Shown: piece by piece, positions 3,654 through 37,563 of the stretch
How the letters are laid out: every line of letters begins with the position of its first letter
How positions within the stretch are numbered: position 1 is the stretch's first letter
Assembly (NCBI GenBank): GCA_043772005.1
Contig: JAYVGP010000009.1
Span: forward strand, 4,328 to 44,327
Direction of reading: 5' to 3'
Length of the DNA stretch: 40,000 bases
Origin: a bacterium
GTDB lineage: Bacteria; Patescibacteriota; Gracilibacteria; Absconditabacterales; Absconditicoccaceae
Position numbers and translations under genes: made by a program
The notes under the pieces: model-generated
What the model saw: only the letters and a program-made list of their open reading frames with translations
What the model was told of the DNA's origin: nothing
The model's database searches: none

Positions 3654-4355
3654 CTATAATGTTGATTGTGCTGCATGTAAGGTTGGGTTATACATCTTGA
3701 ATAACAGTGATACAATCTCTCACGCATCAAGTTCAACTGATTGAAGTCAGACTCATCTCATACCCTCAATGATGAGGTTGTTTCTCATTTCAAGGAACTT
3801 GCGTTGCTTGACGTAGGTGCGATATCTGTCGATAATCACTTCGGCTCACTGGTCGCTATTGAGTACGTCCATAAACTTCTGTCGTCGTGGCTTATTAATA
3901 TGATCTGCATCCTTCTCAGTACTATAATATGGTACTACAATATAGAACTCCTTGATATAGACGAGTCATTCCTTGGTATTGATCGCATCCATGAAGCTGA
4001 TATACTCCTCACCGTAACTAGCAAGGGTTGGGTTGGCAATCTTCTCTACCTGCTCTTTCATAAGATTGATGTAATCTGACAGATCCAAGTAACTATTGTG
4101 AACAATAATCTGGATGGGGAAATCAAGCGCATTGAGGAATCTTTTGTATTGCTCGATGATCTGTAGTTGCTCTTCATAGCTTCTGAGATCCAAGTTGATA
4201 CCCTCTACTTTGATGATAGATCTGAGTCACCCGTCCTTGAGGATGATGGTCTCTCCTCTAATCTCTGTAAACTGAAATAAGCTCTCAGTACTCAGAGTAT
4301 GCTGGTTTTGCTCTTTACGAACTTTGTTGTTTTCGAGGAGGTTGAAGATGGACAT
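3654..4355 (-). CDS. Hypothetical protein (233 aa); weak resemblance to the N-terminal region of VirB4/TraC-type conjugation ATPases, with no ATPase domain
   Basis: ATG 4355-4353. Contains track ORF 3966..4193 and reads through TGA (e.g. 3966-3968) to TAG at 3656-3654. The segment IILKDGGLRSIIKVEGINLDLRSYEEQLQIIEQYKRFLNALDFPIQIIV recalls the VirB4 N-terminal pattern. This is from memory, not a search. Confidence 0.45.
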
Positions 4356-4492: not shown

Positions 4493-7400
4493 TTAGAAGT
4501 TATCAGCAAAAGCTGAACCAAGATTAGTAGTTGAGAATCTAAGACCTGAGATAGTAGTCATACTATCTTCTTCTGAGTATGTTACATTTGCAGAATTCTT
4601 GTAATCGATAGCGATAGAAGAATCAGCTCCAAATGAAGCAGCATCAAGATCTACATAGAATGTAGCAGTCTCACCAGCACCTAAGATACTATCAGTACCT
4701 GTAAGGTTGAATGTTACTACACCAGCTGTACATGTACCAGTACCAAGAGTCGTAGAGTCACCTCTAAGAGCAAGGTTTACAGTACCTGAGAATCCAGCGT
4801 TAGTAGCACATACTAATGTAAGAGTCTTAAGAGCCAATTCAGCATCTTCAGTATCAGCTTGCTTAGAGTTAGTCCAAGAGTCAGCTGTAATTACCAATTT
4901 ACCGATTGTCTGATTAGGACTTGAAAGGTTTGAAGTATCGTAGTCAGTAAGAGCAAGAGCGCTAATTCTAACAGGAACGATAGCAACAGTATATGGAGAG
5001 TTTACATTAGCTTCAGTGATATCACTATTAGATGACATACCTTGAGCTTCTACTATCTGGAGACCGATTGTGAAATCAGGACTTCCATAGTTAGCAGTAA
5101 GACCATCACCCATAACATTAGTTACCAATCTTAGGTAGAGTACTTCAGTTTTACCTGCAGTAACTACATAGTTAAGATCGTTGATCTGTATAGATGTATC
5201 ACCATCAGATACAGTACCTTCGCTACCAGCGTTGAGTACAGTACCATCAGCCTTAACAATTTCTACCTTAGATACTAGATCAGTAAATACAGCAGCATTG
5301 TTGAAGGTAATAGCAAGATCTTCAAGTTTGATATCTTCATCACTAGCCTTAACTTTGAATGCAGCTACGTTCTTAGTAGAACCAGCAACAACATACATAT
5401 TGTTTTTGATAGTAGAGTTTGTAGTATCAGCAGATACGTCAAGATCACCATCACCTACGAGAACGATTGCTCTTGTAGTAAAGCTTGAACTATTAGCAAC
5501 AATATCGTTTTCATCGTCTCTAAACTCAAATGAACTTACGTTAGCTGAGATAGAACCAGTAAGACTATTGTTTGATGTTACGTCGATCTTCACAACATAC
5601 TTCTGAGTAGAAGATGCAGCGATGATTTCGTTGAATCCATCAAGATCAAGTGTACCAGCATTTGTGATATCACTACCGTTCCAAGATTCGATTACAGTAG
5701 CTGAACCGTCCTTGTAAAGAGCAATCTTAGTAATGTAGTTCTTGTTGAAGAATGTAGCATTACCAGTCATCATAAATTCTTTGAACTTGATAGATGAACT
5801 ATCATCAGTTTCAACTTGGAATGTGAAGAAGGCAATATCTTTTTGACCAGCTACTACGTCAAGAGACTGAGCAGAGATCTTAGATACCTTAACACCTGGT
5901 TCTACAATAGTAAGCTTGTCGAATGTCAATGAAGATGGAGTGATATCAGTGATATCTTCGTTTTCATCAAGATCTTCGAGAGCTATATTACTAGCCATAA
6001 GACTTAGTTGTACTGTATCTGCTACAAAACCGCTAAGATTAGCTTTAGTATCACCACGTACTTCGATTCTTACTTTCTTACCAGTTGGGATAGAAAGAGC
6101 AAGATCGTCGAATGTAAGAGTATTACCAATAGCATCTACTTCTTCAGTACTACCATCTACAGATACTTCGATTTTGTCAAAGATACCAGTCATAGTACCA
6201 CCACCAACAACACTAGCGTTGAATACAAGTGTATCGAGTTCTACATCGCTACCAGCGTTGACCGTAAGGTCAAATGCAGCAAGCAAGTAGTCGTCTCTAT
6301 CTTGTCTCATTTCGTCGATATCGAGGTTTACTTCTTCGAGAGTGACATCACCAGCGTCGATAGTAATTGTTGAACCAGCAGTAGGAACAGCATCGAGAGT
6401 TACAGCAAGACCGTAACCATATTTAGCGTCATGACCCATGATGTAATTTACGTCATCGATGATAAGCTTGATGTCTTCACCAATACCTGAGATAGGATCA
6501 GCCATTACTTTGAAGTCTTGTGATTCACCATCAGCGATCATAAGTGGCTTAGCAAATGTGAAAGTAAGATACTTACCGTCAACTTCTGATACTGTAGCTA
6601 CTTCTACACCATCAAACTCAAGAACGAAGTTCTCAAAGTTAGTTCTGATGTTGTTTTCGTCGTCTTCAAGAGTAATAGAGTCGATCATTACATCGTAGTC
6701 AGCATCCTTGTTTTCGATTTCGAATGAAGCAATTTCTACACCCTTGTCTCCAAGTTGTACAGTGTCGTCATTAACATCCATGTCGATTTCGATTTCAGTA
6801 GCGTTAACTGCACCTACTCTAAACTTGTTAGCGTCAACAGCGTCAACAGCGTTACCGTTTACTTCGATAGCAGCAATAGTGAACTCTTGGTTAGATGCAA
6901 TAGCTTCGTCTCCGATAGTTGCAACTACATCTACAGTCACTACATCACCAGCGGCGAGAGTAAGAGTAGGAGTAAGAGTAAACTCTCTTGTACCATCAGA
7001 TTCAAATGATCTAGTCTTAGAAGCAATTGTACCGTTGATGTAAAGAGTTACATCTTGGATAGAATCCTTGTTACCAAGACCGAGTCTTTCGAGAGTAATA
7101 GATGCCAACTTACCAGCTTTGTCAGCTTCGATGTCGAATGAAGCGACATGAGCAGGAGCAAGACCAGGAAGAGTAGTACCCTTTGGAGATTCAGCAGAAA
7201 CTGATACAGTGTATTCACCGTTACCAACTACTACAGGATCTACAGGGTCAACAGGATCTACTGGATCTGTAGGTTCTGTAGCACCTCTGTAAAGCATAAG
7301 AAGAGCTTCGTATCTAGTGATAGGTCTGTCAATAGCAGCACAGTCCGTTTCCTTAGTGATACCATTCTCTTGTGCATAAGTACAATAGTTCTTATACCAA

Positions 7401-7858
7401 GGAGAAGTAGCTTCATCCATTGATCCATCAAGTCCTCTTACGAGAGCTACGATAAATTGAGCTTTAGTCATGTTTGTTTTAGCCATAAACGCGTTATTTG
7501 AACCTCTAAGCAATCCTTGACCACAAGCTGTAGTAATAGATGCAGAAAGTGAAGGATCAAACATAGCAGCGTCTGAGAAGCTACAATCAATTGTTTCATC
7601 AACTTCAGTACCGAGAACTTCAGTAGCGAAAGCTGATAAGAATTTAGCTCCTTGTTCTCTTGTAAGAGTAGCAAAAGGCATAAAGGCAGTTTCTGTGCTG
7701 TACATTGTTAAACCTGTATTGTAACCCCACGCAAGCGCAGCGTCGAATTCAGGATCGTTCAATGCTCCAACCACAGGCGAAAGTGCCGTGAGAGTTACAT
7801 TAGCCATCATAGCAATAAGCATTGCAGATGATACTAGTTTTACGTTGAATTTATTCAT
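4493..7858 (-). CDS. S-layer-like surface protein with N-terminal signal peptide and three SLH-like domains (1121 aa)
   Basis: One unbroken ORF even in the standard code (track 4493..7951). I start it at the internal ATG 7858-7856, where MNKFNVKLVSSAMLIAMMANVTLTALSPVVGA looks like a signal peptide. SLH-like segments are present (WGYNTGL...FMPFATLTREQGAKFL; FSDAAMFDP...MTKAQFIVALVRGL; SPWYKNY...ITRYEALLMLYRG), then a PTDPVDPVDPVDPV linker, then about 850 aa of T/S/D/V/N-rich modules. Confidence 0.75.
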   Translation of the reverse strand: MNKFNVKLVSSAMLIAMMANVTLTALSPVVGALNDPEFDAALAWGYNTGLTMYSTETAFMPFATLTREQGAKFLSAFATEVLGTEVDETIDCSFSDAAMFDPSLSASITTACGQGLLRGSNNAFMAKTNMTKAQFIVALVRGLDGSMDEATSPWYKNYCTYAQENGITKETDCAAIDRPITRYEALLMLYRGATEPTDPVDPVDPVDPVVVGNGEYTVSVSAESPKGTTLPGLAPAHVASFDIEADKAGKLASITLERLGLGNKDSIQDVTLYINGTIASKTRSFESDGTREFTLTPTLTLAAGDVVTVDVVATIGDEAIASNQEFTIAAIEVNGNAVDAVDANKFRVGAVNATEIEIDMDVNDDTVQLGDKGVEIASFEIENKDADYDVMIDSITLEDDENNIRTNFENFVLEFDGVEVATVSEVDGKYLTFTFAKPLMIADGESQDFKVMADPISGIGEDIKLIIDDVNYIMGHDAKYGYGLAVTLDAVPTAGSTITIDAGDVTLEEVNLDIDEMRQDRDDYLLAAFDLTVNAGSDVELDTLVFNASVVGGGTMTGIFDKIEVSVDGSTEEVDAIGNTLTFDDLALSIPTGKKVRIEVRGDTKANLSGFVADTVQLSLMASNIALEDLDENEDITDITPSSLTFDKLTIVEPGVKVSKISAQSLDVVAGQKDIAFFTFQVETDDSSSIKFKEFMMTGNATFFNKNYITKIALYKDGSATVIESWNGSDITNAGTLDLDGFNEIIAASSTQKYVVKIDVTSNNSLTGSISANVSSFEFRDDENDIVANSSSFTTRAIVLVGDGDLDVSADTTNSTIKNNMYVVAGSTKNVAAFKVKASDEDIKLEDLAITFNNAAVFTDLVSKVEIVKADGTVLNAGSEGTVSDGDTSIQINDLNYVVTAGKTEVLYLRLVTNVMGDGLTANYGSPDFTIGLQIVEAQGMSSNSDITEANVNSPYTVAIVPVRISALALTDYDTSNLSSPNQTIGKLVITADSWTNSKQADTEDAELALKTLTLVCATNAGFSGTVNLALRGDSTTLGTGTCTAGVVTFNLTGTDSILGAGETATFYVDLDAASFGADSSIAIDYKNSANVTYSEEDSMTTISGLRFSTTNLGSAFADNF

Positions 7859-8080
7859 CCGAATAAAAGTAAAAAATAAAAAAGAATTACATGAGACAAA
7901 ATATCTCACTGTGTCTCCACACAGCTTGACGCCAAGATAGTGATCAGACATACGAATACAAGTGAAAATGTACCAATGTCTGACACGCCCTGTGTACGGT
8001 CGTCACCATGTATGTACGACTATATCTGATGCTTGTGACAATTATGATGTCTGACAGAGTATGTATTAGATTGACAATCT

Positions 8081-8111
8081 GGTTATAAGCTTTATAAAGT
8101 TTCACCTTCGC
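8081..8111. repeat. AT-rich 31-32 bp box, copy 1 (GGTTATAAGCTTTATAAAGTTTCACCTTCGC)
   Basis: About 27 of 32 positions are identical to 9505-9536. It lies about 225 bp upstream of the S-layer-like gene start. Confidence 0.4.
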
Positions 8112-8686: not shown

Positions 8687-9502
8687 CTATAACTTACGAC
8701 CCAGTCAAATAGTATCACATCCGTACCGCTCATCTCTATATTCGTCTACAATTACTTCTCAGTCACGAATATCGGTACCGACGGTACGTACGAGGATGCG
8801 ATGTTTGGGATAGAGTGTCTGGATCACAGCAACATAGTCTATGGCTGACTGCTGTGACTGCTCCATCACGATCACACTCGAACCACCATGGGTAGCGATC
8901 TCACGGAAGTAGTCAGATAGATACCAATAACTCCAATCAGAAATAAGAACATACTGGCTCTTCTGCTCTTCAGGATCAAGTCAGCCTACAGCTTCAATCA
9001 TACTTGCTGGGAATAAAGTTATGGATTGTCACATCTCACCCAGATACCACAGACCATCACGCTGCGCCATCTCCAACTGTGATGGAAGATAGCGATGTGT
9101 GATTCTGATATAAGTGGGTTGCTGTGTAGTACTCATAATATGATCCAAATCTGACAAAGATATAGGCTCATACACTCTCCAACCATATCATGTCATGAGA
9201 GTAATATCATCAAACTCAGGAGCAAACTTATGACCTATGCTAGCTACTCATACACGCAGATTGACGATTGTGATCTGAGTCAGGTTGCTCACATCATATA
9301 GGTCAAAAAATTGAGCTGCTGTGAGACGAGAGAGAATAATAAGCGTAGGCTGATCTACAGCTGAATCAAACTGTTTCAATGGTACACAATTAGGAAAGAG
9401 GTGTCAGACATCAGCATAGATAATACTATAACTCTGAGACTCGATCAGCTGATCTACAAAGTCTCAAGATTGAATATAGTGGAGGAGATTTACTTCGTTC
9501 AT
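8687..9502 (-). CDS. Divergent transketolase C-terminal-subunit-like protein (271 aa)
   Basis: No ORF of 60 aa or more in the standard-code track. With TGA=Gly there is one frame from ATG 9502-9500 to TAG 8689-8687. The pattern ...IIYADVG...PTLIILSRL...ITIVNLRVGVASIGH...DDITLMTGYGWRVYEPISLSDLDHIM...PTYIRITHRYLP follows the Pyr/C-terminal transketolase layout, but the catalytic-type motifs are degraded. Confidence 0.4.
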
Positions 9503-15140: not shown

Positions 15141-16280
15141 ATGAACTACAATCAACTCGCTCTCGAAGCCCACAAACTACACAAATGAAAACTCGGAACT
15201 CATAGCATTCCGAAACTCGAAACCAGAGATGATCTTTCAACTTATTATAGCCCTGGTGTAGCTGCCCCATGTCTCGCTATCGAACAAAACCCCGAACTCG
15301 CCTATGACTATACCTGGAAATCTCGTACGATCGCAGTAGTCAGTGACGGCAGTGCTGTCTTATGACTGGGGAATCTGGGCTGACTGGCATCATTGCCCGT
15401 GATGGAGGGTAAATGTATTTTATTTAAAGAATTTGGATGAGTAGATGCAGTGCCAATTGTACTCAATACTCAAGATCCAGACGAAATCATCGAGACGGTG
15501 TTACGCATTAGTCCAACATTCTGAGGAATCAACTTGGAAGATATCAAAGCTCCAGAGTGTTTCTATATTGAGGAGGAATTGAAAAAAAGAGCATGAATCC
15601 CAATCTTCCACGATGATCAACATGGTACTGCAATCGTCGTACTCGCGGGTCTCATCAACGCCCTCAAAGTAAACAACAAGATAATGTCAGACATCAAAAT
15701 TGTGATGACTGGAGCTGGAGCTGCCGGTATTGCGATTGCGAAATTACTATGGAAAGCATGAGCGACCAACATTATTATGGTTGATACCAAATGAGCAATC
15801 CATCACGGCAGAACTGATCTCAATAAATATAAATCTGAGATTGCTGACTACAATCGTGACACTCTCAGTGGTTCGCTGTCTGAAATAATCATTGGGGCAG
15901 ATGTATTTATTGGAGTATCTGGACCCGGTACGCTGGATCAAGACATGGTCAGAACTATGAGTACAGATGCAATCGTCTTTGGTCTTGCTAACCCAATCCC
16001 TGAGATTATGCCTGAGGATGCCAAAGCAGCCTGAGCGCTCATTATTGCTACTGGTAGGTCAGATTACCCAAATCAAATCAATAATATATTGGCTTTCCCA
16101 TGACTATTTAAGGGAGTATTACAGGCTCGTATCCCACAGATCACTGACGACCATAAACTCGCAGCTGCATTTGCTCTTGCAAATTATGTCACAAACCCTA
16201 CCGTAGATATGATCGTACCCAACGCACTGGACAAAGCTGTAGCTGATATAGTAGCACAGGCAGTAATAGGCGTCAAATAA
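15141..16280 (+). CDS. NAD(P)-dependent malic enzyme, short form (379 aa)
   Basis: ATG 15141. Motifs: [85 protein letters not shown]. Many of the conserved glycines are TGA (e.g. 15363-15365, 15381-15383). TAA stop at 16278-16280. Confidence 0.9.
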
Positions 16281-20876: not shown

Positions 20877-23800
20877 TTATAGGAGGTTTTGTAGGGTTTC
20901 TCGTAGGGTAGATCGTCGAGATTGAGATTGTGATGCATCGTGTGAAAGCTGTGATATGAGCAATCATGATCCGATGTCTATTCATGTCGTTTGACTCAGT
21001 ATTGGATCAAGATAGATTGCTGGATAATGTTGCTGGATATATAGTTTCTCTTGATAATACTGGGCATTACGGTCCGATAAGGTTTGAATATATTCCTTAC
21101 TCGACTGATATAACTGTGTAATACGAGTAGCATATGCACGAGACTGTTCAAGTTTGGTATGAAGCAGATCGATATAATCTTGTTTACTATTGGTAATGCT
21201 ACGATATGTTTGGTATAATTCATTCGTCTTACTACGATAACGATCCCATATATCACTAATTTCTTGATACTGTTCTTGTTTCAGCACCTTATTGATAAGT
21301 TTTTGTTCTCTCAAATCAAGGTTCAATAGTTCTAATGCATCGTCACTATCCGATATTGTCACAATCTGACCTTCATCAGCATAAAGTTCGCGCATCTTGT
21401 TGGAAATCTCAATAGTCGTCAAATCAAGCATATCTGAACTATGATAACTGCCATAACATACTTGGTCGTATATGGTTTCTCAATCAGTCAATGCAACACA
21501 TCATCCGTCGTTGGGTAGTGGAAATGAATCATAGATCAACTGCGCTAAGTCCGATCATCAAGATCAGGTGATAACTCTATTAGCCTTATTATTAATCACT
21601 AACAATAAAACTGATCACGATTGCGCTTGTTCATCATCCCATATCAATGAGACCAACTCTCATCCATCAGTATCACGTCACGGCGGATCAGCAATAATAC
21701 GATCAATCATAACTGCTTGATGCTGTTGAAAACGATACAACGATAATGATGCATCAGTATTGCTCGACGATGCTGTTCCACTGGATGATTGCTGTTGAAT
21801 AGATGTATCGAACGAGCATTCTCAGCCAAGTTGATCTTGCGCGTTAACGGTGCATCACTGCTTTCTGATATTGGTAGCAAGCACATCATGCTTATCCTTT
21901 CGCTTACGATAGAGGTCCTCATAATAGGTCGAGGTAGATGATGGCGAAGTAGATGATGAACTACTACTTGATATCGATGGATAGCTGATAAATGAATGAG
22001 TCTGACACAGCTGCTGTCCATCCTTGCTAATCGTGAGCTGTAGTGGTGCAAGTATCGCTTGGGGCAGAGTGAAATATCATGGATTGCAGCTGTCGGAGCC
22101 GGTGAACGTAAGTCAAGATCGCTGACACTGGTAGCTACTAGAATTTTGTATTTCATCTCTATCCAGCGATGCAATGAGGTTGATCGAGTTGCCAAATCTC
22201 AATGGAGTTGTATGCTGCGCCACAATACCACATACATGCTGTTCTCCAGTTTGAATGATAGTTGTTGTGAGCGTATTGGTGATCGTTTGCTGATGTATTG
22301 CTCCATAAAACATATATTCATCTTCACAAACCATAGTAGCACCACTATATTGTTGATAGGTAACACGGTGGGATCATGGAGCAAATGACTGTCACAGCGA
22401 ACATGAATTATTGGTTGATATAGCTCAATCGACCAATCGGGAGCTTGATGAGCAAGTTGAGTCTACTAAACTTCCGGACACAGTAAATCATGCAGAAAAT
22501 GATCCTGTGATATATCACTCATTGACAGCACTAATACGACATCATCCGATTTGTGGGACTTGTATTGATTGATGACAAGATGTCAGAAGAGTGGTTGCTT
22601 GATTGGTAGTAAAGATTCTTGTGCCTCATGAGTATGAAGTGAATATACTTGCTTTATTGGCTTGTGTGGATGAATAAATGACTGAGTCAAGCACCAAGCC
22701 TGATCAATTGCTCATAATAAGAGATTCTCCGTCATCGGTGAGCGTCATATTGGGCACCAGTATGACATTGTCAGACAAGACTCCACTCATCGATTCCACA
22801 AGGTATCGTACCGATCCAGACTGAGCTGAAATATCAAAGATCTTACTGGTATCTGATGTTCCCAGCCCAGCAATAGTGAGGGATCATGAGTAGGGTGCAG
22901 TAAACGACAGTGATAGATGCTCACCCACACAGTCAGCAAATGGATATATTTGAGAAATCTGGATCGATCAGGTAAGTTGTGTTCAAGTTAAAATTATTCA
23001 GGTCATGACTATTCATGTAACAACAATACCTGTACTAGCAGCTCCCGTGATTATCATTCAAGTTACAACAGTTCATGTCGTTACTACTCCAGTAAAAATG
23101 GTACCAGTACTAATTGATCATGTTATCAACAATCAAGTCGAAATAGTTCATGTGTTTGCAGGAAATAACGTGAGTCACCGCACGAGTCATGGATTGCCAC
23201 GATGTCATGAAATGATATTTGTGTTGTGAGATATTGGCGTAACTTGCCAGAGTTGTTGAGAAAAATCATACTCTCGAGCAGCAGACTGGTTATCGGATCA
23301 TAGTACTTGTGATACAATCAGATCGAGAGAGTCAATCACGTCTCCACTATAGATCAGCTGTAATGAGCGAGCAGTAGTATCTGTCATAGATAATCACTGC
23401 CCAGATACAATATCAAATCACGATGACACTACCATCGCTAGCGTATCACCAATCACTACGCTCTCATTGGTTCATAAATTCAAAGTAGTTGTTAGTAATC
23501 AAGATGTTTTGACTCAAGAAATACTCACTGATCCTATAAAAGGATCTCACCGATTTGTTAGTTCAATATATTCATCAGTACCATCGATCCTGACTTCAGT
23601 GATGCTGAGCTGTGGCGATGGATTTGGTAGTACGAATGATGTCATCATAAGCATCAATGACGAAATATCTTCCTGTGGCTCATTTTCAACACTAGAATAA
23701 GCGATTTCTGGTGGATTTTGCTCCACTGCTCACTGTCAGACTGTGGGCTGGGACGAATCAGGGATCAATAATCCTCACGTACTATCTAACGGTCATGATC

Positions 23801-24164
23801 ACACAATACTACCTGATGAGTTAGACACAACATCTGTCGTACTTCATGATTCGACACCAGGAAAGATATTAGTATCAGATTGATCTTGCGCAATATTGCT
23901 ATCACTATCGACGATAGGTAAAAGCTCTGGCTGTCATGGTTTGTCTGACATAAGACTTAGAACTTCGACAGTATTGGACGCTTGCTCTGATTCAAAATCA
24001 TTATATACAAGCTCTTCTCAAGATCACGGGATCGAAATAGTGATGTCTTGTGCGACAGCCCGACTCAAACATGTCTGACATAGTATGACAACTATCGACA
24101 TTCGACTTAGACATGTCTGACATAGTATGACATAATACGACAGCAAACAATACTTGTCTGACAT
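20877..24164 (-). CDS. Giant surface-type protein with three lamin-tail-domain (LTD)-like segments, a (TGxxx)13 repeat and a Q/Y-rich coiled-coil C-terminus (about 1095 aa)
   Basis: One minus-strand frame has no TAA/TAG from 24236 down to TAA at 20879-20877. Track ORFs 22113..22334 and 20982..21431 are in this frame. LTD-like motifs: ITEVRIDGTDEYIELTNRG; IQISQIYPFADCVGEHLSLS...LTDDGESLIM; MIDRIIADPPGRDTDGGELVSLIW...LPNDGGCVALTDGETIYDQVCYG. The start is uncertain: ATG at 24164, 24101 or 23951. Confidence 0.65.
22965..23153 (-). repeat. 13 tandem 15-bp units encoding the pentapeptide repeat T-G-x-x-x inside the LTD gene
   Basis: Translated: TGTIS TGLLI TGSIS TGTIF TGVVT TGTVV TGMII TGAAS TGIVV TGIVM TGIIL TGTQL TGS. 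The Gly codons in order are TGA TGA TGA GGT GGA TGA TGA GGA GGT TGA TGA TGA TGA. Confidence 0.85.
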
Positions 24165-24294
24165 TTGTATAGTAAAAATAATATAAAAGATACAAGAATG
24201 CTTTATATAACTAATATCTGATAATCTTTTTGTGTCTTATTTTGTCTGACAAAGTATGACAGATTTGTCTATGTCTGTCATCAATACTATGACA
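24072..24294. repeat. Array of direct 19-bp repeats TGTCTGACAnAGTATGACA (plus degenerate copies)
   Basis: Exact TGTCTGACATAGTATGACA at 24072-24090 and 24114-24132. TGTCTGACAAAGTATGACA at 24243-24261. A half copy at 24155-24163. A variant TGTCTGTCATCAATACTATGACA at 24272-24294. The related TGTCTGACAGAGTATGTAT is at 8048-8066. Start-to-start spacings are 42, 41 and 88 bp. Confidence 0.8.
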
Positions 24295-24816
24295 GATTTT
24301 GACACTCTTGGACAAATCTAGCGAAAGTGCTGTCAAATTGCAAGATTATTTTGTCAAAGTCTGTCAAGAGGGATTTGACATGATACGACTGTAATATAAG
24401 TAATCATATATTATGTTGTACTATAAGTTAATAGCGCGACAAAAATACGACAATAAAACAACGAATTATAGCGACTTTACTCAATAGACACCATGACACG
24501 AATCATTCAGATCGGCTTATCATAGCCTGTCATGCTAACGTTTGGTTAGAGGATTTTTGTTTTTTACGCTTGTAGAGTTACTAAAATTTCGTATACCATC
24601 AACATATCAATAAATCCAAATAGTTTATTGATCTGTACAAACAAAAATCTGTTGTTAACATTCCGTTCTCTGTATATCTTAGAGCAGAATATCAACTCCC
24701 ACCCGGGTAGGTGTTATTCAATTACGCTCCGAAGATTGACTTTAAACTTACGAATCAATGACTTATATCAATTAGTGGTAATCATCACTACTTCATATAA
24801 ATCGCTGTTTCAGTGG

Positions 24817-24872
24817 TTGTGTCTCTCTTCGGGGCACAATCACTAAATCAGCATGTTTTCTTGCTGATTTTT
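24817..24872 (+). terminator. Two consecutive hairpins, the second an intrinsic-terminator-like stem plus T-run, inside the long non-coding region before pheT
   Basis: TTGTGTCTC-tcttc-GGGGCACAA (24817-24839), then AATCAGCA-tgttttct-TGCTGATT followed by TTT (24846-24872). Confidence 0.55.
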
Positions 24873-24959
24873 CGTTTATGAAAAACATGAGCTGAGATTG
24901 ATTTTCGATAGTGATTGTGTAGATTATATGCAATATTTAATCTTATTTTATCGTATCTA

Positions 24960-27419
24960 ATGAAATATCATCTCAACTGAATCAAACAATACATCTCACT
25001 CAAGGATAATCTCGAAAATCTGGTCAAACAGATGACGATGAAGATCTTTGAGGTTGAGGATGAAATTGTGGATAATATACTACCCGATCTACTTGTGATC
25101 TGATATGTCACAGCCGTAACTCAACATCCAAATGCGGATAAACTCAAAGTATGTCAGATCGACTGTGGTACTCATGGAAACTTCCAGATTTGTACTGGTG
25201 GAGAGAATATTGTCGTCGATAAATATGTGCCTGTAGCATTACCTGGATGCTATCTGCCAGCGATTGATCTTAAGATCGAGCCAAGACCGATGAGAGGCGA
25301 GGAATCCAACGGTATGGTCTGCTCCAAAGGTGAACTCGGTATCAATGAAGACGAGGACCAGCACTGGATATGGCTACTGGATGAGGATCTCCACGATCTA
25401 TCGGCTGACGATAAAGGAAAAGACATGAAGGATAAGTATCCATGGCTAGAAAATGTGCAATTTGAGGTTAAAAACATCGCAATTACCACCAGGCCTGACC
25501 TGACTGGGTATTGGGGAGTGGCTTGTGAGCTCAATGCGGTGTATGCTGACAGTGGATTGATACAGTTTAACCAAGTACCAACAGTGCTCAATGAACTACA
25601 GCATCTTAATATCAGCGAAGCACTACGTACTGCACCAAATGCTACCAGATGAGTACAAATCGATACTGACCTATGTGCGTGCTATAGTGTGGTGGAGTTT
25701 GATGGGATTACAGTCAAGCCTAGTGACCTCTATCAGAGGATGATGGTCTATGGTACTGGAGCAATCCCCAGAAGTAATTGGGTCGACCGGTCCAATAATT
25801 TTATGAATTTGACAGGGCAGCCAGTACACTGCTTTGATAGTAATACACTCGTAGGAGATATCATCGTGAGAATTGCCAATGATGGAGAACAATTTACTGA
25901 TCTGCTGTGAGGAGAACATGCGCTCCAAACATGAGATATTGTCATATGCGATCAGGAAAAGATCGTAGCCCTTGCAGGTGTGATCGGATGAATGAATACT
26001 GCAATCAGCGAAACAACCACCAAGGTAAGTGTGGAAGTAGCGCAATTTGACCCAACACAGGTACGTAAGACCGCAACAAGATTGTGATTGAGAACTGACG
26101 CAGCGGTCAGATTTGAAAAATATATCAACCCATACTGGACACAATACTGCACGATGATCGTGTCAGAACAGATTCGCAAGCAGGCGACGAGCCTGGGTAA
26201 AGCCAACTATGTTGGGATCACACATGTGACCAATATAATGCCAGCTCGCATGCCAGTCACCGTGTCGGTGGCCAAGGCTCAACAGTTTATCTGGGGTAAT
26301 GGGCAAGCGCATACAGGTGAACAGATGAAGAAATTGCTCGAACATCTATGATTCATCGTGAGCCTCGATAGTGATATGATGCTATGTACACCACCAATCT
26401 GGAGGTCACCGGTCGATATCACACATGTGCAAGATATCTATGAAGAGATTGGTAGGATTGTAGGATATGAAAATCTGGGCACTCAAACACTCAAGACAAG
26501 TGCTACACCGCAGCTCAACATCATCCCACAGGTTGTAAGGACAATCGAAGATACGATGGTGATGAAATATGGCTATGATCAGGTCGAAACATACCTCTGG
26601 ACCGAACAAAAATACCTCGAACTCCTCGGTCAATATGACCCAAGCTCCTATACACTACTCAATCCACTTAGTCCTGAGCAGACAATCATCAGACCGATGT
26701 TGTACCCAGGACTCGTACAATCTGTGGTCAAAAATCATAGAATGCATGATGAGGTCAAAGTATTTGAGACGGCGCATGTGGTAAATAGTAACGGAGTTGA
26801 AACTCATCATGTCTGTATCGTAAGCTATACCACAAGGGATAGCAACAGCGAATATCCGTGAGGATGAAAAAATCTCCTGCAAGATGCCATCATACAGCAC
26901 AAAACGATCCTGTCAGACATCGTCGGACAGTATGAGATATCCTCTACAGATAAGGCATATCTCCATCCTAAGAAACAAGGAGAGATTAAAATAAATAGTG
27001 AGATAGTCGGACTCCTAGGTCAAGTACATCCACTGGTGTGTGATGAGCTCGGTCTCAATATTGACTATCAACTCGTGGTCACTGAGGTAAATCTTACAGC
27101 ACTGATCGCACAAGGCTGGACATGAGTCAAGTCAGGCAAATCATATCTCACCAACCAACACCATATCATCACTCGTGATGTATCGTTTGGACTGACAGGT
27201 AATGCAACATACGAGCAGATCCTCAACATTGCTCAGTCTGCCAAGGGTATCGACAAGGTAGAGGTGTTTGATCTCTATCAGCCAAGTCCTGAACTGCGCA
27301 CGATGTGAGTAAGATTTACGATGATCTATGATGAGGCTCCAAGCACCGAATCTGTGACTAAGAAGGTAGAGTATATTGTCGGGCAGATTGCAAAGATTGA
27401 GGGAGTGAGTGTGAGGTAG
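24960..27419 (+). CDS. pheT: Phenylalanine--tRNA ligase beta subunit (819 aa)
   Basis: ATG 24960. N-terminal tRNA-binding (OB) domain: VIGYVTAVTQHPNADKLKVCQIDCG...IEPRPMRGEESNGMVCS. Track fragments 25227..25652, 25689..25910, 26088..26351 and 26358..26861 are collinear in one frame and joined by TGA. TAG stop at 27417-27419. No pheS is found upstream. Confidence 0.9.
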
Positions 27420-27990: not shown

Positions 27991-28531
27991 ATGCAAAAAA
28001 TTACTTTTATCACATGAAATCAACACAAGGCAGATTATCTTGCTCAATTTCTTGGCTATCCAGTAGACCACATCAAACTTGATCTGGATGAAGTTCAATC
28101 CACAGATCTTCGTGAGATTGTAGAACATAAAGTTAAACAAGCCTACAGTATAGTCAAAAAGCCCGTCATCGTGGAAGACGTATCATTAGAATTTGAAGAA
28201 TTAGGTTGATTACCAGGACCATTTATCAAATTTTTTTGTCGATAAAGTACCATTTCAAAACGTATGCAATATGATTTGATTAAATAGAAATGCTACAGCA
28301 AAATGTGTCTTTGGCTATTATGATGGCAAGGAATTACACCTATTTGAGTGAAAACTAGATGGAACTATTACTACACAACCATCAGGAGAAAATTGATATG
28401 GTCGAGATCAGATCTTTATACCACAGTGATACGATGTCACAAGAGCATCACTATCTCCAGAAGATGACCAAAAAACATACCTACAGATTAAACCATTTGC
28501 CCAGCTCAAAGACTTTCTTGAAAGAAGATAA
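27991..28531 (+). pseudogene. Ham1/RdgB-type non-canonical purine NTP pyrophosphatase (ITPase), interrupted by a +1 frameshift in a T7 run
   Basis: Frame 1 (27991-28245) reads MQKITFITGNQHKADYL...VIVEDVSLEFEELGGLPGPFIKFF and then stops. The family-typical continuation VDKVPFQNVCNMIGLNRNATAKCVFGYYDG...GENGYGRDQIFIPQGYDVTRASLSPEDDQKTYL runs in the next frame from 28238 to TAA at 28529-28531. The shift lies in TTTTTTT at 28231-28237. Confidence 0.7.
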
Positions 28532-31781: not shown

Positions 31782-33974
31782 CTATTGTTCTGATGGAATT
31801 TTGTTAATAAGGTTCTCATTAAGATCACCTCAAAGACCTAACCCATATACACCATAATCCATGAGTTTTGCAATCTTAGCGCTCACAAACCTACATCGCT
31901 CCTCATGATAGAATCTATGTTCCGTAAAGTATTCACGTAGCTTTCCATGAGTAGGTTTCTTTGATCTCAAAAGACTATGTCGAGCAATATCTTCAATCTT
32001 CCAGTACTGAGGAACAGGATTCCACATATTTTTTTCCTCAGTCATCATATAGGTATATGCTGCGAACATCTCTGATCTCACACCCAAAGATATGGGATTA
32101 TCACTAGCATCATATCCATCGGCAAACTCTTCGAACCAATCACGAACTTTTGATAGCTGTAAATTTACCCCCCATGTTAAGTTTTGATTGATAATTTTTT
32201 TTGCCACCTCATCTACTGTCAGAATATCTGTTAAACGCGACTTAATCGTATTGATAATCTTGCGGCACTGTTCTACCTGAAATAAAGATCAAGCAAGATA
32301 GTTTGCTGTATTGTCGGGTAGGGGTGTTTTGAGTAGCTCTTTGGATATATTCTGAATAATATTTCTACGTGCCAATGGAGTGGGCGGCTCATTCTGAGCC
32401 TCATACACATCCGCAAATAATCGCTTTCTTAGATTCATCGTATGATACTTGTTACGTTTTCTTTTTTCAGGATCTGAGACCGTAGTGTGGCTATCTTTTT
32501 CTAGTTCATCTGCAATATGATTTAAACTGTTCTCTGACTCCAAAATAAGTCTTGTATGACCACTGTTAATCATTTTTATTAGTTCTCATTTAATCCAATA
32601 CTTACCTTTCATGATTTTATCAAAATCACTAATATACATAACATCACAATCATTTAGCTTTTTGGTGAATGTATCAAATCCTTTTGACTTTAGCTCTGGA
32701 TTGGGCTCTTGTGCGATCATCGAGATTTCTTTTGCTAATCCTTCCATACTAAATTCCCATATACGAGCTCTTGGAAATTTACTCTGAATCTCACTGAGAT
32801 AGTGCTTAATGATTGTAGTTTTACCACATCACTTACACCCGCTAATAATACAGTGTTTAATAGTATCATCCGTAATTGGGGATAACTGATCTCTTAGTCG
32901 TTTGGACAACAGACTATCCGCATCGCGATTACCGTTATGAATAGTAAGTTGATTTGATGTTTGAACTTTCTTAGGGCGATTTTTGGAGCGTGCCGCTACT
33001 ATCAAATCATACTCTGATCTTCATTGACCACTTTTGTGACCATATTCTATATGTATTAATTTATGAAAACCAGCTCAAAGGCCTAAAAACTCCTTTGCAT
33101 ACTCTACGAAAGCTCATATCACCTCATTATCAAATATATCCATGTAGCTTTTCACCAACTCTTCTTTTCCAGGATATATAAAATATCGACCAACTAAATT
33201 CTTTGAATTTTGTATTCTATATAATACAAGATTTATTCCACTAATATATAAATTATAATCTTCAATAGAATTATTTCTTTTTAAGATTCACTTAAAATTA
33301 AACCAAAGTTGATTGATGATTTTCTGATCACATACAGGCTTAATCTTAGTATCAAGAAAACAATCTATCACTGGTTTCCCCGTATTAATGTAGGTCTTAT
33401 AGAAATCTGGAGATCAAATAAAATCAATAATAGATCACATAATAGGATAATCTTTGAGATCCTTCTTTATCCTGGAGCTAACGATAGCCGCTCACTTTAT
33501 AAAGTTTTCTACTAAGTTTGTATTCTTCTCTCCACTTCCATAAGTCCACGATATCAGATCATGTTTGATATACTCAAACAAATCGTCTCAATCTTTTCTT
33601 GTTTCAATCAAATATTGATATAGGGATCACTCTTTATCAAGCGCTACCCAAAATTCATCGGCAGTAGGAATGCGTAATTTCTCAAACAACTCTTCTCTTA
33701 TAAATTTAATACTGGATCCCACTGGTCAGCCATCCTCCTCCTTTGGGGGAGTGCTGCTGATGGATGGTATATTTGGAAGTTTTTTGGGAGGATATTGTTC
33801 TGGCAGCCACTCGCCACTTGGCTTCTCTCACATATCGTATTCGTTTCAGGATCATCATCAGGACATCCCCACTATCCCCAATAAATTTATTTGCCCAATA
33901 GAAACTCCTTTACCAAACCTTCATTTGGGGGATTGTGGTAATTTAAGAGGTCAAGATTCTTGTTCAACTCCCAT
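31782..33974 (-). CDS. DnaA-family AAA+ ATPase with about 400-aa N-terminal extension and a divergent C-terminal domain (730 aa)
   Basis: Track ORFs 32289..32573 and 31830..32207 are the tail of one frame that stays open (TGA=Gly) up to ATG 33974-33972. Walker A SGCKGCGKTTII. Walker B and following CDVMYISDFDKIMKGKYWIKGELIKMINSGHTRLILESEN parallels DnaA D.LLIDDIQFL.GK...QEEFFHTFN...GKQIVLTSDR. NLRKRLFADVYEAQNEPPTPLARRNII parallels RLRSRFEWGL...IQPPDLETRIAIL. PLPDNTANYLAGS parallels the lid. The canonical DnaA signatures (GLGKTHL, RQIAMYL, DHTTV) are not conserved. Confidence 0.6.
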
Positions 33975-34115
33975 AACAACTAATGAAAATAACTATCTTA
34001 TAATAAGCATCTATTGTTATATGTCAATATATAATCACAAAAATCAACTATCTAATGAAATTAATACTAAAATCATTATAATCACAATACTTTTTGACCA
34101 CTAAATACATAGCCC

Positions 34116-37002: not shown

Positions 37003-37563
37003 ATGATAGCAAAACAACATAAACTCACTACCAAAGAGGTAAATTATCTCATGAGACGCAAACAATCGGTCTACGTAGATGGATATAAGATTTTATACTG
37101 CGATCAATACCTCAACAATCAATACCATCAAACAGGTATCCAGGTATCGGGCAAAGTCCACAAACATGCCGTCCAAAGAAATATTATTAGAAGAGCATTT
37201 TATGCTGCACGAGAAGATCAGATTGACAAAGCAACACACAATCATTATCACAAGATATTCATCGTAATTCATCCTGAGCATTGTGAGTTTATCGAGCAAC
37301 TAATCGAAAGCGAAAGATTATTAAAAATAGTAAATAACAGTGAATCCCCAGGAAAGGAGAAAGATAATAAAAAGACGCCTCATTTAAAATCCAATCCCCA
37401 TCAACAACTCAAATCACATTTTAATAGTATCATCATATCAGCGCTATGAAAAATCAACAAAACACTATCCAAGCCATGATCTCCAACGTACAATCGTTAT
37501 GGAAAAAGTTCAATATCAAGCCCAAGTCGCTCACACTCGATGACGACGAAGACATCACCGTAG
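37003..37563 (+). CDS. rnpA: Ribonuclease P protein component (186 aa when TGA at 37447 is read through)
   Basis: Track ORF 37003..37449 carries the RnpA pattern (KLTTKEVNYLMRRK...GIQVSGKVHKHAVQRNIIRRAFY). Its apparent stop is TGA, so under table 25 the frame continues 38 codons to TAG at 37561-37563. Confidence 0.7.

Follow-up and report, generated by a model that had tools for sequence, protein, structure and literature searches.

A conserved, helically phased array of TGTC half-sites at the start of an LTD-like envelope-protein gene in a TGA-recoded bacterium: a possible operator

Introduction

The OmpR/PhoB regulators, the ribbon-helix-helix proteins, CtsR and DnaA represent the described systems closest to the locus analysed here, an array of TGTC half-sites at the 5′ end of a gene for an LTD-like envelope protein. 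The array lies in a stretch of 40,000 nt (the window; positions 4,328 to 44,327 of contig JAYVGP010000009.1, assembly GCA_043772005.1) from a bacterium of the Absconditabacterales (Gracilibacteria), and all coordinates below refer to this stretch unless another sequence is named. The Pho box of Escherichia coli reads CTGTCAT-N4-CTGTCAT and the WalR site TGTWAH-N5-TGTWAH, and WalR-type regulators control cell-envelope genes. Arrays of short boxes with 10-bp phasing and mixed orientation around a promoter are a hallmark of ribbon-helix-helix centromeres; ribbon-helix-helix arrays have a phase of 7–11 bp, are bound cooperatively into a helical filament, and serve both as operators and as sites of higher-order assembly. 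The CtsR operator of Firmicutes is (A/G)GTCAAA-NAN-(A/G)GTCAAA, and to our knowledge CtsR is known only from that phylum. The arrayed low-affinity DnaA sites of oriC are phased near the helical repeat.

We know of almost nothing on gene regulation in uncultivated TGA-recoded bacteria of the Gracilibacteria/Absconditabacteria type, and a search of the literature on the motif or on regulation in the lineage found nothing relevant. Here, we describe the anatomy, phasing and conservation of the array, and interpret it, with a probability of roughly 0.55, as a conserved helically phased operator array for a putative sequence-specific DNA-binding protein, situated in the divergent promoter region of a candidate non-coding RNA (ncRNA) gene (+) and an LTD–DUF4012 operon (-).

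Results

Anatomy and helical phasing of the array

A first-pass annotation, made from the letters of the window alone, had pointed to 19-bp direct repeats, a TGTCAA/TTGACA cluster and an AT-rich block at the 5′ end of the LTD gene, and its inventory proved accurate. The 19-mer TGTCTGACAnAGTATGACA occurs exactly at 24072, 24114 and 24243, where 0.06 copies would be expected with up to three mismatches allowed; further exact copies of TGTCTGACA lie at 23942 and 24155, a variant with one mismatch, TGTCTGTCA, lies at 24272, and the start-to-start distances are indeed 42, 41 and 88 bp. A related copy is located at 8048, also as described. TGTCAA was found at 24331, 24352 and 24362 and TTGACA at 24375, including the pair TGTCAA-N7-TTGACA, the AT-rich block has a GC content of 22–28%, and the peptide VILCQTCLSR is encoded twice when the gene is read from the ATG at 24164.

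On the gene strand (-), the 19-mer takes the form TGTCATACTnTGTCAGACA, in which TGTCA boxes stand 10 bp apart and the second one makes a perfect palindrome, TGTC-W-GACA. The unit of the array is a TGTC half-site every 10 bp, punctuated by high-affinity-looking palindromes of the form (A)TGTCWGACA(T), and more than 25 half-sites are spread over about 570 bp. The density of GACA/TGTC peaks at 15 per 200 bp, compared with a window mean of 1.5, and the only other cluster in the window lies upstream of an S-layer-like gene. The palindrome TGTCNGACA occurs 12 times in the window versus 1.07 times expected, and same-strand TGTC pairs at exactly 10 bp number 11 within the 420 bp of the array versus five in the remaining 39.6 kb. 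The AT-rich block probably represents a core promoter and/or an unstructured leader. An invertible promoter between the inverted repeats 23931–23953 and 24240–24262 was considered and rejected, because the arms are two copies of the palindrome and a conserved start codon lies between them.

The first-pass description of the repeats as helically phased was, if anything, understated. Fourier analysis of the TGTC positions in the window gave a peak at 10.7 bp that exceeds the 99th percentile of the null, and over the whole 570 bp the period was 10.2–10.8 bp in all eight genomes compared below. Across these genomes, 10 bp was the dominant TGTC–TGTC distance (34 coding and 17 non-coding pairs), 15 GACA–GACA pairs at 10 bp were found in the upstream non-coding part, and 10-bp pairs of all kinds numbered 66, compared with five 11-bp pairs. 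Within the open reading frame (ORF), TGTC starts at nt 2, 23, 33, 43, 52, 65, 75, 85, 94 and 108; from nt 23 on, the gaps 10, 10, 9 and 13 occur twice (the final gap being 14), and each such pattern forms a 42-nt unit of four boxes per four helical turns, equal to 14 codons. Since 42 bp per four sites amounts to 10.5 bp per site, all the sites lie on one face of the helix.

Conservation in relatives

The relatives comprised L001, a GTDB genome, and seven further homologues retrieved by a protein search with the LTD product, whose contigs gave L018–L025. L001 is syntenic with the window, with a pheT that is 81% identical, and the LTD proteins of the seven homologues are 43–65% identical to that of the window. 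Comparative alignment, which had been proposed as a check on the repeats, came out in favour of a conserved element: the array is kept in position and orientation in eight diverged genomes, and a TGTC/GACA-dense cluster lies 300–900 nt upstream of the conserved LTD-domain motif in every relative.

The order of parts is common to all. A very conserved element of about 370 nt is followed by a variable spacer, then by AAAATAATCTTGCAATT, 14–17 variable nt and TAGATT, then by three TGTC boxes at 10 bp and by mixed GACA/TGTC boxes including a palindrome; after these come the AT-rich block (TAGTTATATAAA ... TTTTATATT ... TATACAA), the sequence ATGTCAGACA and about ten further TGTC boxes. The palindromes that bracket the AT-rich block are 87–90 bp apart in 8/8 genomes, and at the place equivalent to the palindrome at 23942, (A/G/T)TGTCAGACA is found in six of the seven relatives, the exception being L020.

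A metagenome scan with the LTD alignment, for which poor peptide patterns had been chosen, gave no matches. Metagenome matches to TGTCATACTNTGTCAGACA (n=13) were rejected as unrelated chance matches. One of these sequences, L017, carries at positions 1–400 a 60-bp tandem satellite (…CAGACAGTGTCATACAGTGTCAGACAGC…) in which the motif occurs by chance, and it is not a relative of the array locus.

Coding and DNA-level constraint at the start of the LTD gene

The window is nearly devoid of long ORFs under the standard code, which gives an ORF coverage of 12%, versus about 100% with TGA as a sense codon; standard-code ORF calling was rejected accordingly, as it yielded nearly no genes and recoding TGA restored them. 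TGA sits at invariant glycines, for example in the Walker A motif AxAxSGKT of UvrD, DTGMxFERL of AlaS and HExGH of the M3 peptidase, which identifies the code as code 25 (TGA = Gly) and not code 4. In this code the LTD ORF runs in full from 20877 to 24236 (-), and its product is counted from the ATG at 24164; a public protein (P0001), encoded on a 1.02-Mb contig, is the same product called from the same ATG with TGA translated as Trp. A Pfam scan of the LTD protein returned no family at E ≤ 0.01, and its homologues have faint precomputed matches to PF00932. The gene is the first of an LTD–DUF4012 pair, with DUF4012 downstream, and this synteny is kept in all relatives; on the other side of the array, about 870 bp without a protein gene precede pheT (+).

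The first-pass annotation had argued that the true start may lie downstream of the repeats and that the repeats are regulatory. The proposed downstream start was not borne out: in 8/8 genomes the ATG at 24164 is invariant and the ORF that begins there runs in frame without interruption as far as the LTD domain, which indicates that the repeats are coding. The alternative start at codon 22 is ATG, TTG, GTG or CTG depending on the genome, and the alternative ATG at 23951 is lacking from L023 and L020, with GTG in its place in L018 and TTG in L019. The other half of the argument is supported in so far as the repeats are selected as DNA regardless of codon position; they also lie in an open ORF.

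The selection on the DNA motif is evident from the codon alignment of the eight genomes, in which the conservation of the TGTC columns is 99% whichever codon position (1, 2 or 3) they fall on. For the remaining third positions of the same 93 nt it is 68%, close to the 66% of the LTD-domain core; this indicates that the DNA motif is selected in its own right. Val12 and Val26 are encoded by GTC in 8/8 genomes each (16/16), versus 21% of the Val codons in the window, Asp3 is always GAC (8/8; 29% usage) and Ile27 is always ATA (8/8; 16% usage). The conserved residues match TGTC in three frames, with NTG-TCN giving [MLV]S, GTC giving V and TGT-Cnn giving C[QRL], and the N-terminal peptide reads MSDKYYLLSYYVKVCQxCLSR[MLV]SIIVILCQT...VVAQD. 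Its features include a core, SIIVILC, of only 6–7 hydrophobic residues, and VVA, VIG, VLA or IVA before Q/A/E-D/E, so that the first ~40 LTD residues appear signal-peptide-like, ending in VVA|QD. The array reaches 110 nt into the coding sequence, so that the DNA motif and coding together shape these first ~40 residues. The repeats are therefore taken to be both coding and regulatory.

Motif copies outside the array

The expectation that the motif would recur upstream of other envelope genes was confirmed at the S-layer-like gene in the window, in L027 and in L028. The 71-bp spacing of the two palindromes is kept in L027 and L028, and in L028 the sequence around them and even their central base differ. 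This supports a putative regulator common to envelope genes. About 230 nt upstream of the S-layer-like gene are near-identical across genomes with proteins only 41–47% identical (window 7856–8090, -; L027 90–319; L028 2720–3000), which points to a long 5′ leader of this gene, structured or under some other constraint, besides the palindromes. The S-layer-like gene (4493–7855, -) also differs from the LTD gene in codon choice, since TGA makes up 51 of the 89 Gly codons in the LTD gene versus 0 of 84 in the S-layer-like gene, a contrast that may reflect expression level.

Further TGTCWGACA palindromes lie within genes (Table 1), and another one was noted at 9402. In these intragenic sites, the synonymous positions are fixed and the neighbouring codons variable, and the usual reading is [LM]SD[IKN]. 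At the site in the LTD gene, for instance, the codons TTG, GAC and GTC are invariant and the codons around them vary.

Table 1 Features of the array and of its surroundings in the window
Feature	Coordinates	Strand	Remarks
Downstream palindrome TGTCTGACA	23942..23950		Within ORF, MSDK at codon 72
Start codon inside palindrome ATGTCAGACA, then two 42-nt (14-codon) repeats	24054..24164	-	Eight-genome codon alignment; encodes MSDKYCLLSYYVILCQTCLSRMSIVVILCQTCLSRAVAQD
AT-rich block	24165..24242	-	Conserved TAGTTATATAAA, TTTTATATT (24185-24180 = TATATT) and TATACA (24171-24166)
Upstream non-coding half of array	24243..24330		Palindrome 24243-24251, GACAGACATAGACA, three TGTC boxes at 10-bp spacing
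Putative promoter-like TTGCAA-N17-TAGATT, preceded by AAAATAATC	24315..24343	-	Hexamers kept, spacer variable (eight genomes)
TGTCAA/TTGACA cluster	24331..24380		Block conserved in relatives; holds tandem heptad TGTCAAAGTCTGTCAAG (24351-24367)
Less conserved spacer with GACA half-sites	24381..24512		For example TAGACACCATGACAC (24485-24499); runs to 5′ end of ncRNA gene
Candidate structured ncRNA, ~370 nt, divergent from LTD gene	24513..24880	+	Intrinsic terminator 24845-24870
LTD-like envelope protein gene	20877..24164	-	1095 aa, code 25; ORF visible only with TGA recoded
Two TGTCWGACA palindromes 71 bp apart with flanking TGTCA boxes	7977..8056		~120-200 bp upstream of S-layer-like gene start (7855, -)
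Intragenic palindrome, malic-enzyme gene	15685..15693		Same position in L023
Intragenic palindrome and 10-bp partner, LTD gene	22769..22777		Encodes LSDNV; 8/8 genomes
Intragenic double site TGTCAGACATCGTCGGACA, pheT	26911..26929		Encodes LSDIVGQ; 5/5 genomes with pheT sequence
Intragenic palindrome, miaA	30169..30177		Also in miaA of L023

A candidate structured ncRNA beside the array

The very conserved element on the far side of the spacer is a candidate structured ncRNA and is present in all relatives that cover the region. Its fold (RNAalifold) comprises nine helices, not counting the 3′ terminator, with 74 pairs, 19 of which have changes on both sides. Altogether 94% of the cells were paired, none of 500 shuffles reached the observed values, and slid controls gave at most eight compensatory pairs. 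The terminator stem differs in L001 yet is maintained there by compensatory changes, and the G-U pairs together with the 3′ intrinsic terminator place the ncRNA on the + strand. Against Rfam 15, the ncRNA gave no match at the gathering threshold, and searches relaxed to E ≤ 10 (window) and E ≤ 1 (five relatives) produced tRNAs only. RNase P RNA, tmRNA, signal recognition particle (SRP) RNA and 6S RNA were rejected because their conserved motifs do not fit, and ARAGORN found no tmRNA.

A co-directional gene always follows within about 60–170 nt of the ncRNA; in three genomes this is pheT, in L001 and L025 another gene. From this constant follower, the ncRNA could be an RNA gene in its own right or belong to that operon as its leader. 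A pheT leader or T-box was considered, and the T-box was rejected, as Rfam gives no match and other genes stand before pheT in L001 and L025; a generic attenuating leader of the downstream operon is possible. Half-sites of the spacer such as TAGACACCATGACAC would reach the presumed promoter of the ncRNA.

In L001 (8190–9700), an insertion of about 1.5 kb with extra ORFs lies between the ncRNA terminator and pheT, and in L025 the same junction holds three extra genes (a 160-aa protein, a peptidase S51 and an SDR). The junction of ncRNA and pheT thus appears to be a hotspot of gene insertion. Elsewhere in the window, a Ham1/RdgB-like gene (27991–28531, +) is split into ORFs 27991–28245 and 28271–28531, with a single 179-aa Ham1 in L023, and a frameshift, a pseudogene or a fault of the assembly could each account for the split.

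Discussion

A cooperative operator array as the favoured reading

In the mechanism that we propose, a dimer would recognise the palindromes (A)TGTCWGACA(T), and more subunits would join cooperatively on TGTC half-sites 10, 10, 9 and 13 bp apart on the same helix face, so that the resulting nucleoprotein complex would reach from about -330 to +215, counted from the start codon. The AT-rich block, the presumed promoter/leader, is bracketed by palindromes at the constant distance given above, and one of these holds the start codon. A protein bound there should hence cover the promoter or draw it into a loop and prevent initiation, and would thus work as a repressor or a switch. The same protein could act on the S-layer-like gene through the two palindromes 71 bp apart, and possibly on the ncRNA too.

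Several observations weigh against an operator. No regulator is recognisable among the proteins or small ORFs of the window, and a search of the small ORFs near the array for a ribbon-helix-helix or helix-turn-helix regulator found none; the number of half-sites and their 570-bp extent go far beyond ordinary operators, and the promoter assignments score under the threshold of the consensus scan. Palindromes at synonymous sites in housekeeping genes (pheT, miaA and the malic enzyme) are unusual for a gene-specific regulator, and all seven sites outside the array lie at 7.9–30.2 kb, the outer 17.7 kb of the window being free of them, a regional pattern that fits a chromosome-level role at least as well.

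Whichever protein reads it, the array has a DNA motif that is well defined, deeply conserved and linked to the genes of two major envelope proteins, and that can serve as bait for the binding protein. It also provides a natural case of dual coding, in which an operator array would fix synonymous positions and shape a signal-peptide-like sequence, and it adjoins a covariation-supported ncRNA that is absent from Rfam.

Alternative readings

A chromosome-level element is unlikely as an explanation of the array, and it would be a centromere-like or nucleoid-organising loading site of the ParR-parC, omega-heptad or ParB-parS-like type, with the intragenic palindromes as satellite sites of the same protein. 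The array does resemble ribbon-helix-helix centromeres in its phasing, mixed orientation and position around a presumed promoter, and the extra sites are intragenic, conserved at synonymous sites and regionally confined as described. However, no partition NTPase or small ribbon-helix-helix gene adjoins the array, the canonical parS TGTTNCACGTGNAACA (a 16-bp palindrome) has 0 matches with up to three mismatches, and the clearest of the other sites, a pair, lies close to the promoter of another envelope gene; the tests of this reading and of an origin covered 40 kb of the genome. A broader version, in which array and satellite palindromes would form a chromosome-organising locus of code-25 bacteria (a centromere-like site or a non-canonical origin) with a putative filament-forming protein, and the DNA code would dictate the LTD signal peptide, is likewise improbable in our estimate. 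If the regional clustering of intragenic sites holds genome-wide, it would point to an undescribed chromosome-organising system.

The motif could also act in RNA, as UGUC repeats in the LTD 5′ untranslated region and early coding sequence that are bound by an RNA-binding protein or that tune the translation of an mRNA lacking a Shine-Dalgarno sequence. If transcription starts at TTGCAA-N17-TAGATT, the leader would hold about 140 nt of array together with the AT-rich block, and all ten boxes downstream of the ATG have one orientation. We give this little credence, as the key sites are perfect palindromes, the upstream boxes occur in both orientations, the sites in pheT (a + strand gene) and in the LTD gene (a - strand gene) are conserved equally, and a periodicity of 10.5 bp is a property of duplex DNA.

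A purely protein-level repeat, in which a 14-residue N-terminal segment (signal peptide or anchor) was duplicated and the DNA periodicity is a by-product, agrees with the open ORF and its ATG, invariant in 8/8 genomes, with the unit of 42 nt or 14 codons, with the use of the ATG at 24164 by gene callers and with the signal-peptidase-like V-x-A/G before QD/ED at the end of the segment. It is nevertheless very unlikely. Third positions within TGTC stand at 99% conservation versus 68% elsewhere and the rare codons GTC, GAC and ATA are fixed, codon 22 encodes M, L or V yet is always NTG, and the 10-bp TGTC phasing extends upstream into some 330 bp of non-coding DNA and is seen again at the S-layer-like gene. 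As a sole explanation, the protein-level repeat is largely refuted by the pattern at synonymous sites.

The first-pass annotation had also raised an origin-like element, that is, phased initiator boxes around an AT-rich unwinding element read by a divergent DnaA-like protein or another initiator. Such a layout can be recognised in the succession of a box cluster, a conserved 78-bp AT-rich block and a second box cluster and in the phasing near the helical repeat, and because the only DnaA-like protein encoded in the window has diverged strongly, it could read a box other than TTATCCACA. Still, the idea was not borne out and is very unlikely. TTATCCACA with at most one mismatch occurs 16 times versus 14.2 expected, without excess or cluster, and none of the occurrences lies in 23938–24520; the closest, at 25067 and 25133, fall in the 5′ end of pheT. 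The nearest DnaA-like gene is 7.6 kb off, and no initiator gene adjoins the array. The GC skew is positive on both sides of the array, with +0.04 to the left and +0.06 to +0.075 to the right (weak evidence at 40 kb), and its only clear negative-to-positive change lies at ~34.5 kb, beside the DnaA-like gene and near rnpA. The motif is not unique to the locus but recurs in the S-layer-like gene region and at intragenic sites, and the array extends over an invariant start codon and into 110 nt of a conserved ORF. Per-gene GC3 skew was uninformative (noise), and over 40 kb both measures of skew are too noisy to locate an origin.

The DnaA-like AAA+ gene itself lies at 31782–33974 (-), with a match to TIGR00362 at E = 3.7e-4 (far below the cut-off), and is followed by a 140-bp AT-rich spacer with two ATAATCACAA repeats (gene and spacer at 31782–34115); rnpA lies at 37003–37563. 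The region of this gene and its spacer is a better origin candidate than the array.

Comparison with known systems

By the features tested, the array is not a member of the OmpR/PhoB, ribbon-helix-helix or CtsR systems, and it shares some features with each of them. Like the DnaA boxes of oriC and plasmid iterons, it has phased repeats on both sides of an AT-rich block, but it does not carry the DnaA-box consensus. The likeness to CtsR lies in the tandem GTCAAA heptads with a 10-bp period, as the array reads TGTCAAAGTCTGTCAAG at 24351–24367; however, this fits only part of the array, and the target genes of the array are not clp.

The ribbon-helix-helix arrays (ParR-parC of R1/pSK41, the omega heptads of pSM19035 and the tetramer boxes of ParG of TP228) resemble it as long arrays of short boxes, direct and inverted, around a promoter or, in the array, a presumed promoter. 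In our case, however, the array is chromosomal, lies upstream of an envelope-protein operon (LTD, DUF4012) rather than a par operon and overlaps the coding sequence, and no ParM/ParA or small ribbon-helix-helix gene is adjacent to it.

The comparison with OmpR/PhoB shows differences in spacing (10 bp in the array versus 11), in the number of half-sites (more than 25 versus 2–6), in the interspersed palindromes TGTCWGACA and in the boxes that run 215 bp into the coding region. Compared with the Pho system in particular, the array is flanked by the LTD gene, DUF4012, pheT and the ncRNA and not by phosphate-related genes, and no response regulator is encoded in the window. The likeness to these regulators lies in the TGTCA(T) core of the half-site and in the head-to-tail repeats about one helical turn apart, arranged in tandem around a presumed promoter. 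Even the half-site CTGTCAT is found, the gene strand reading TGTCATACTATGTCAGACA, and all eight genomes share GTCATA at codons 26–27.

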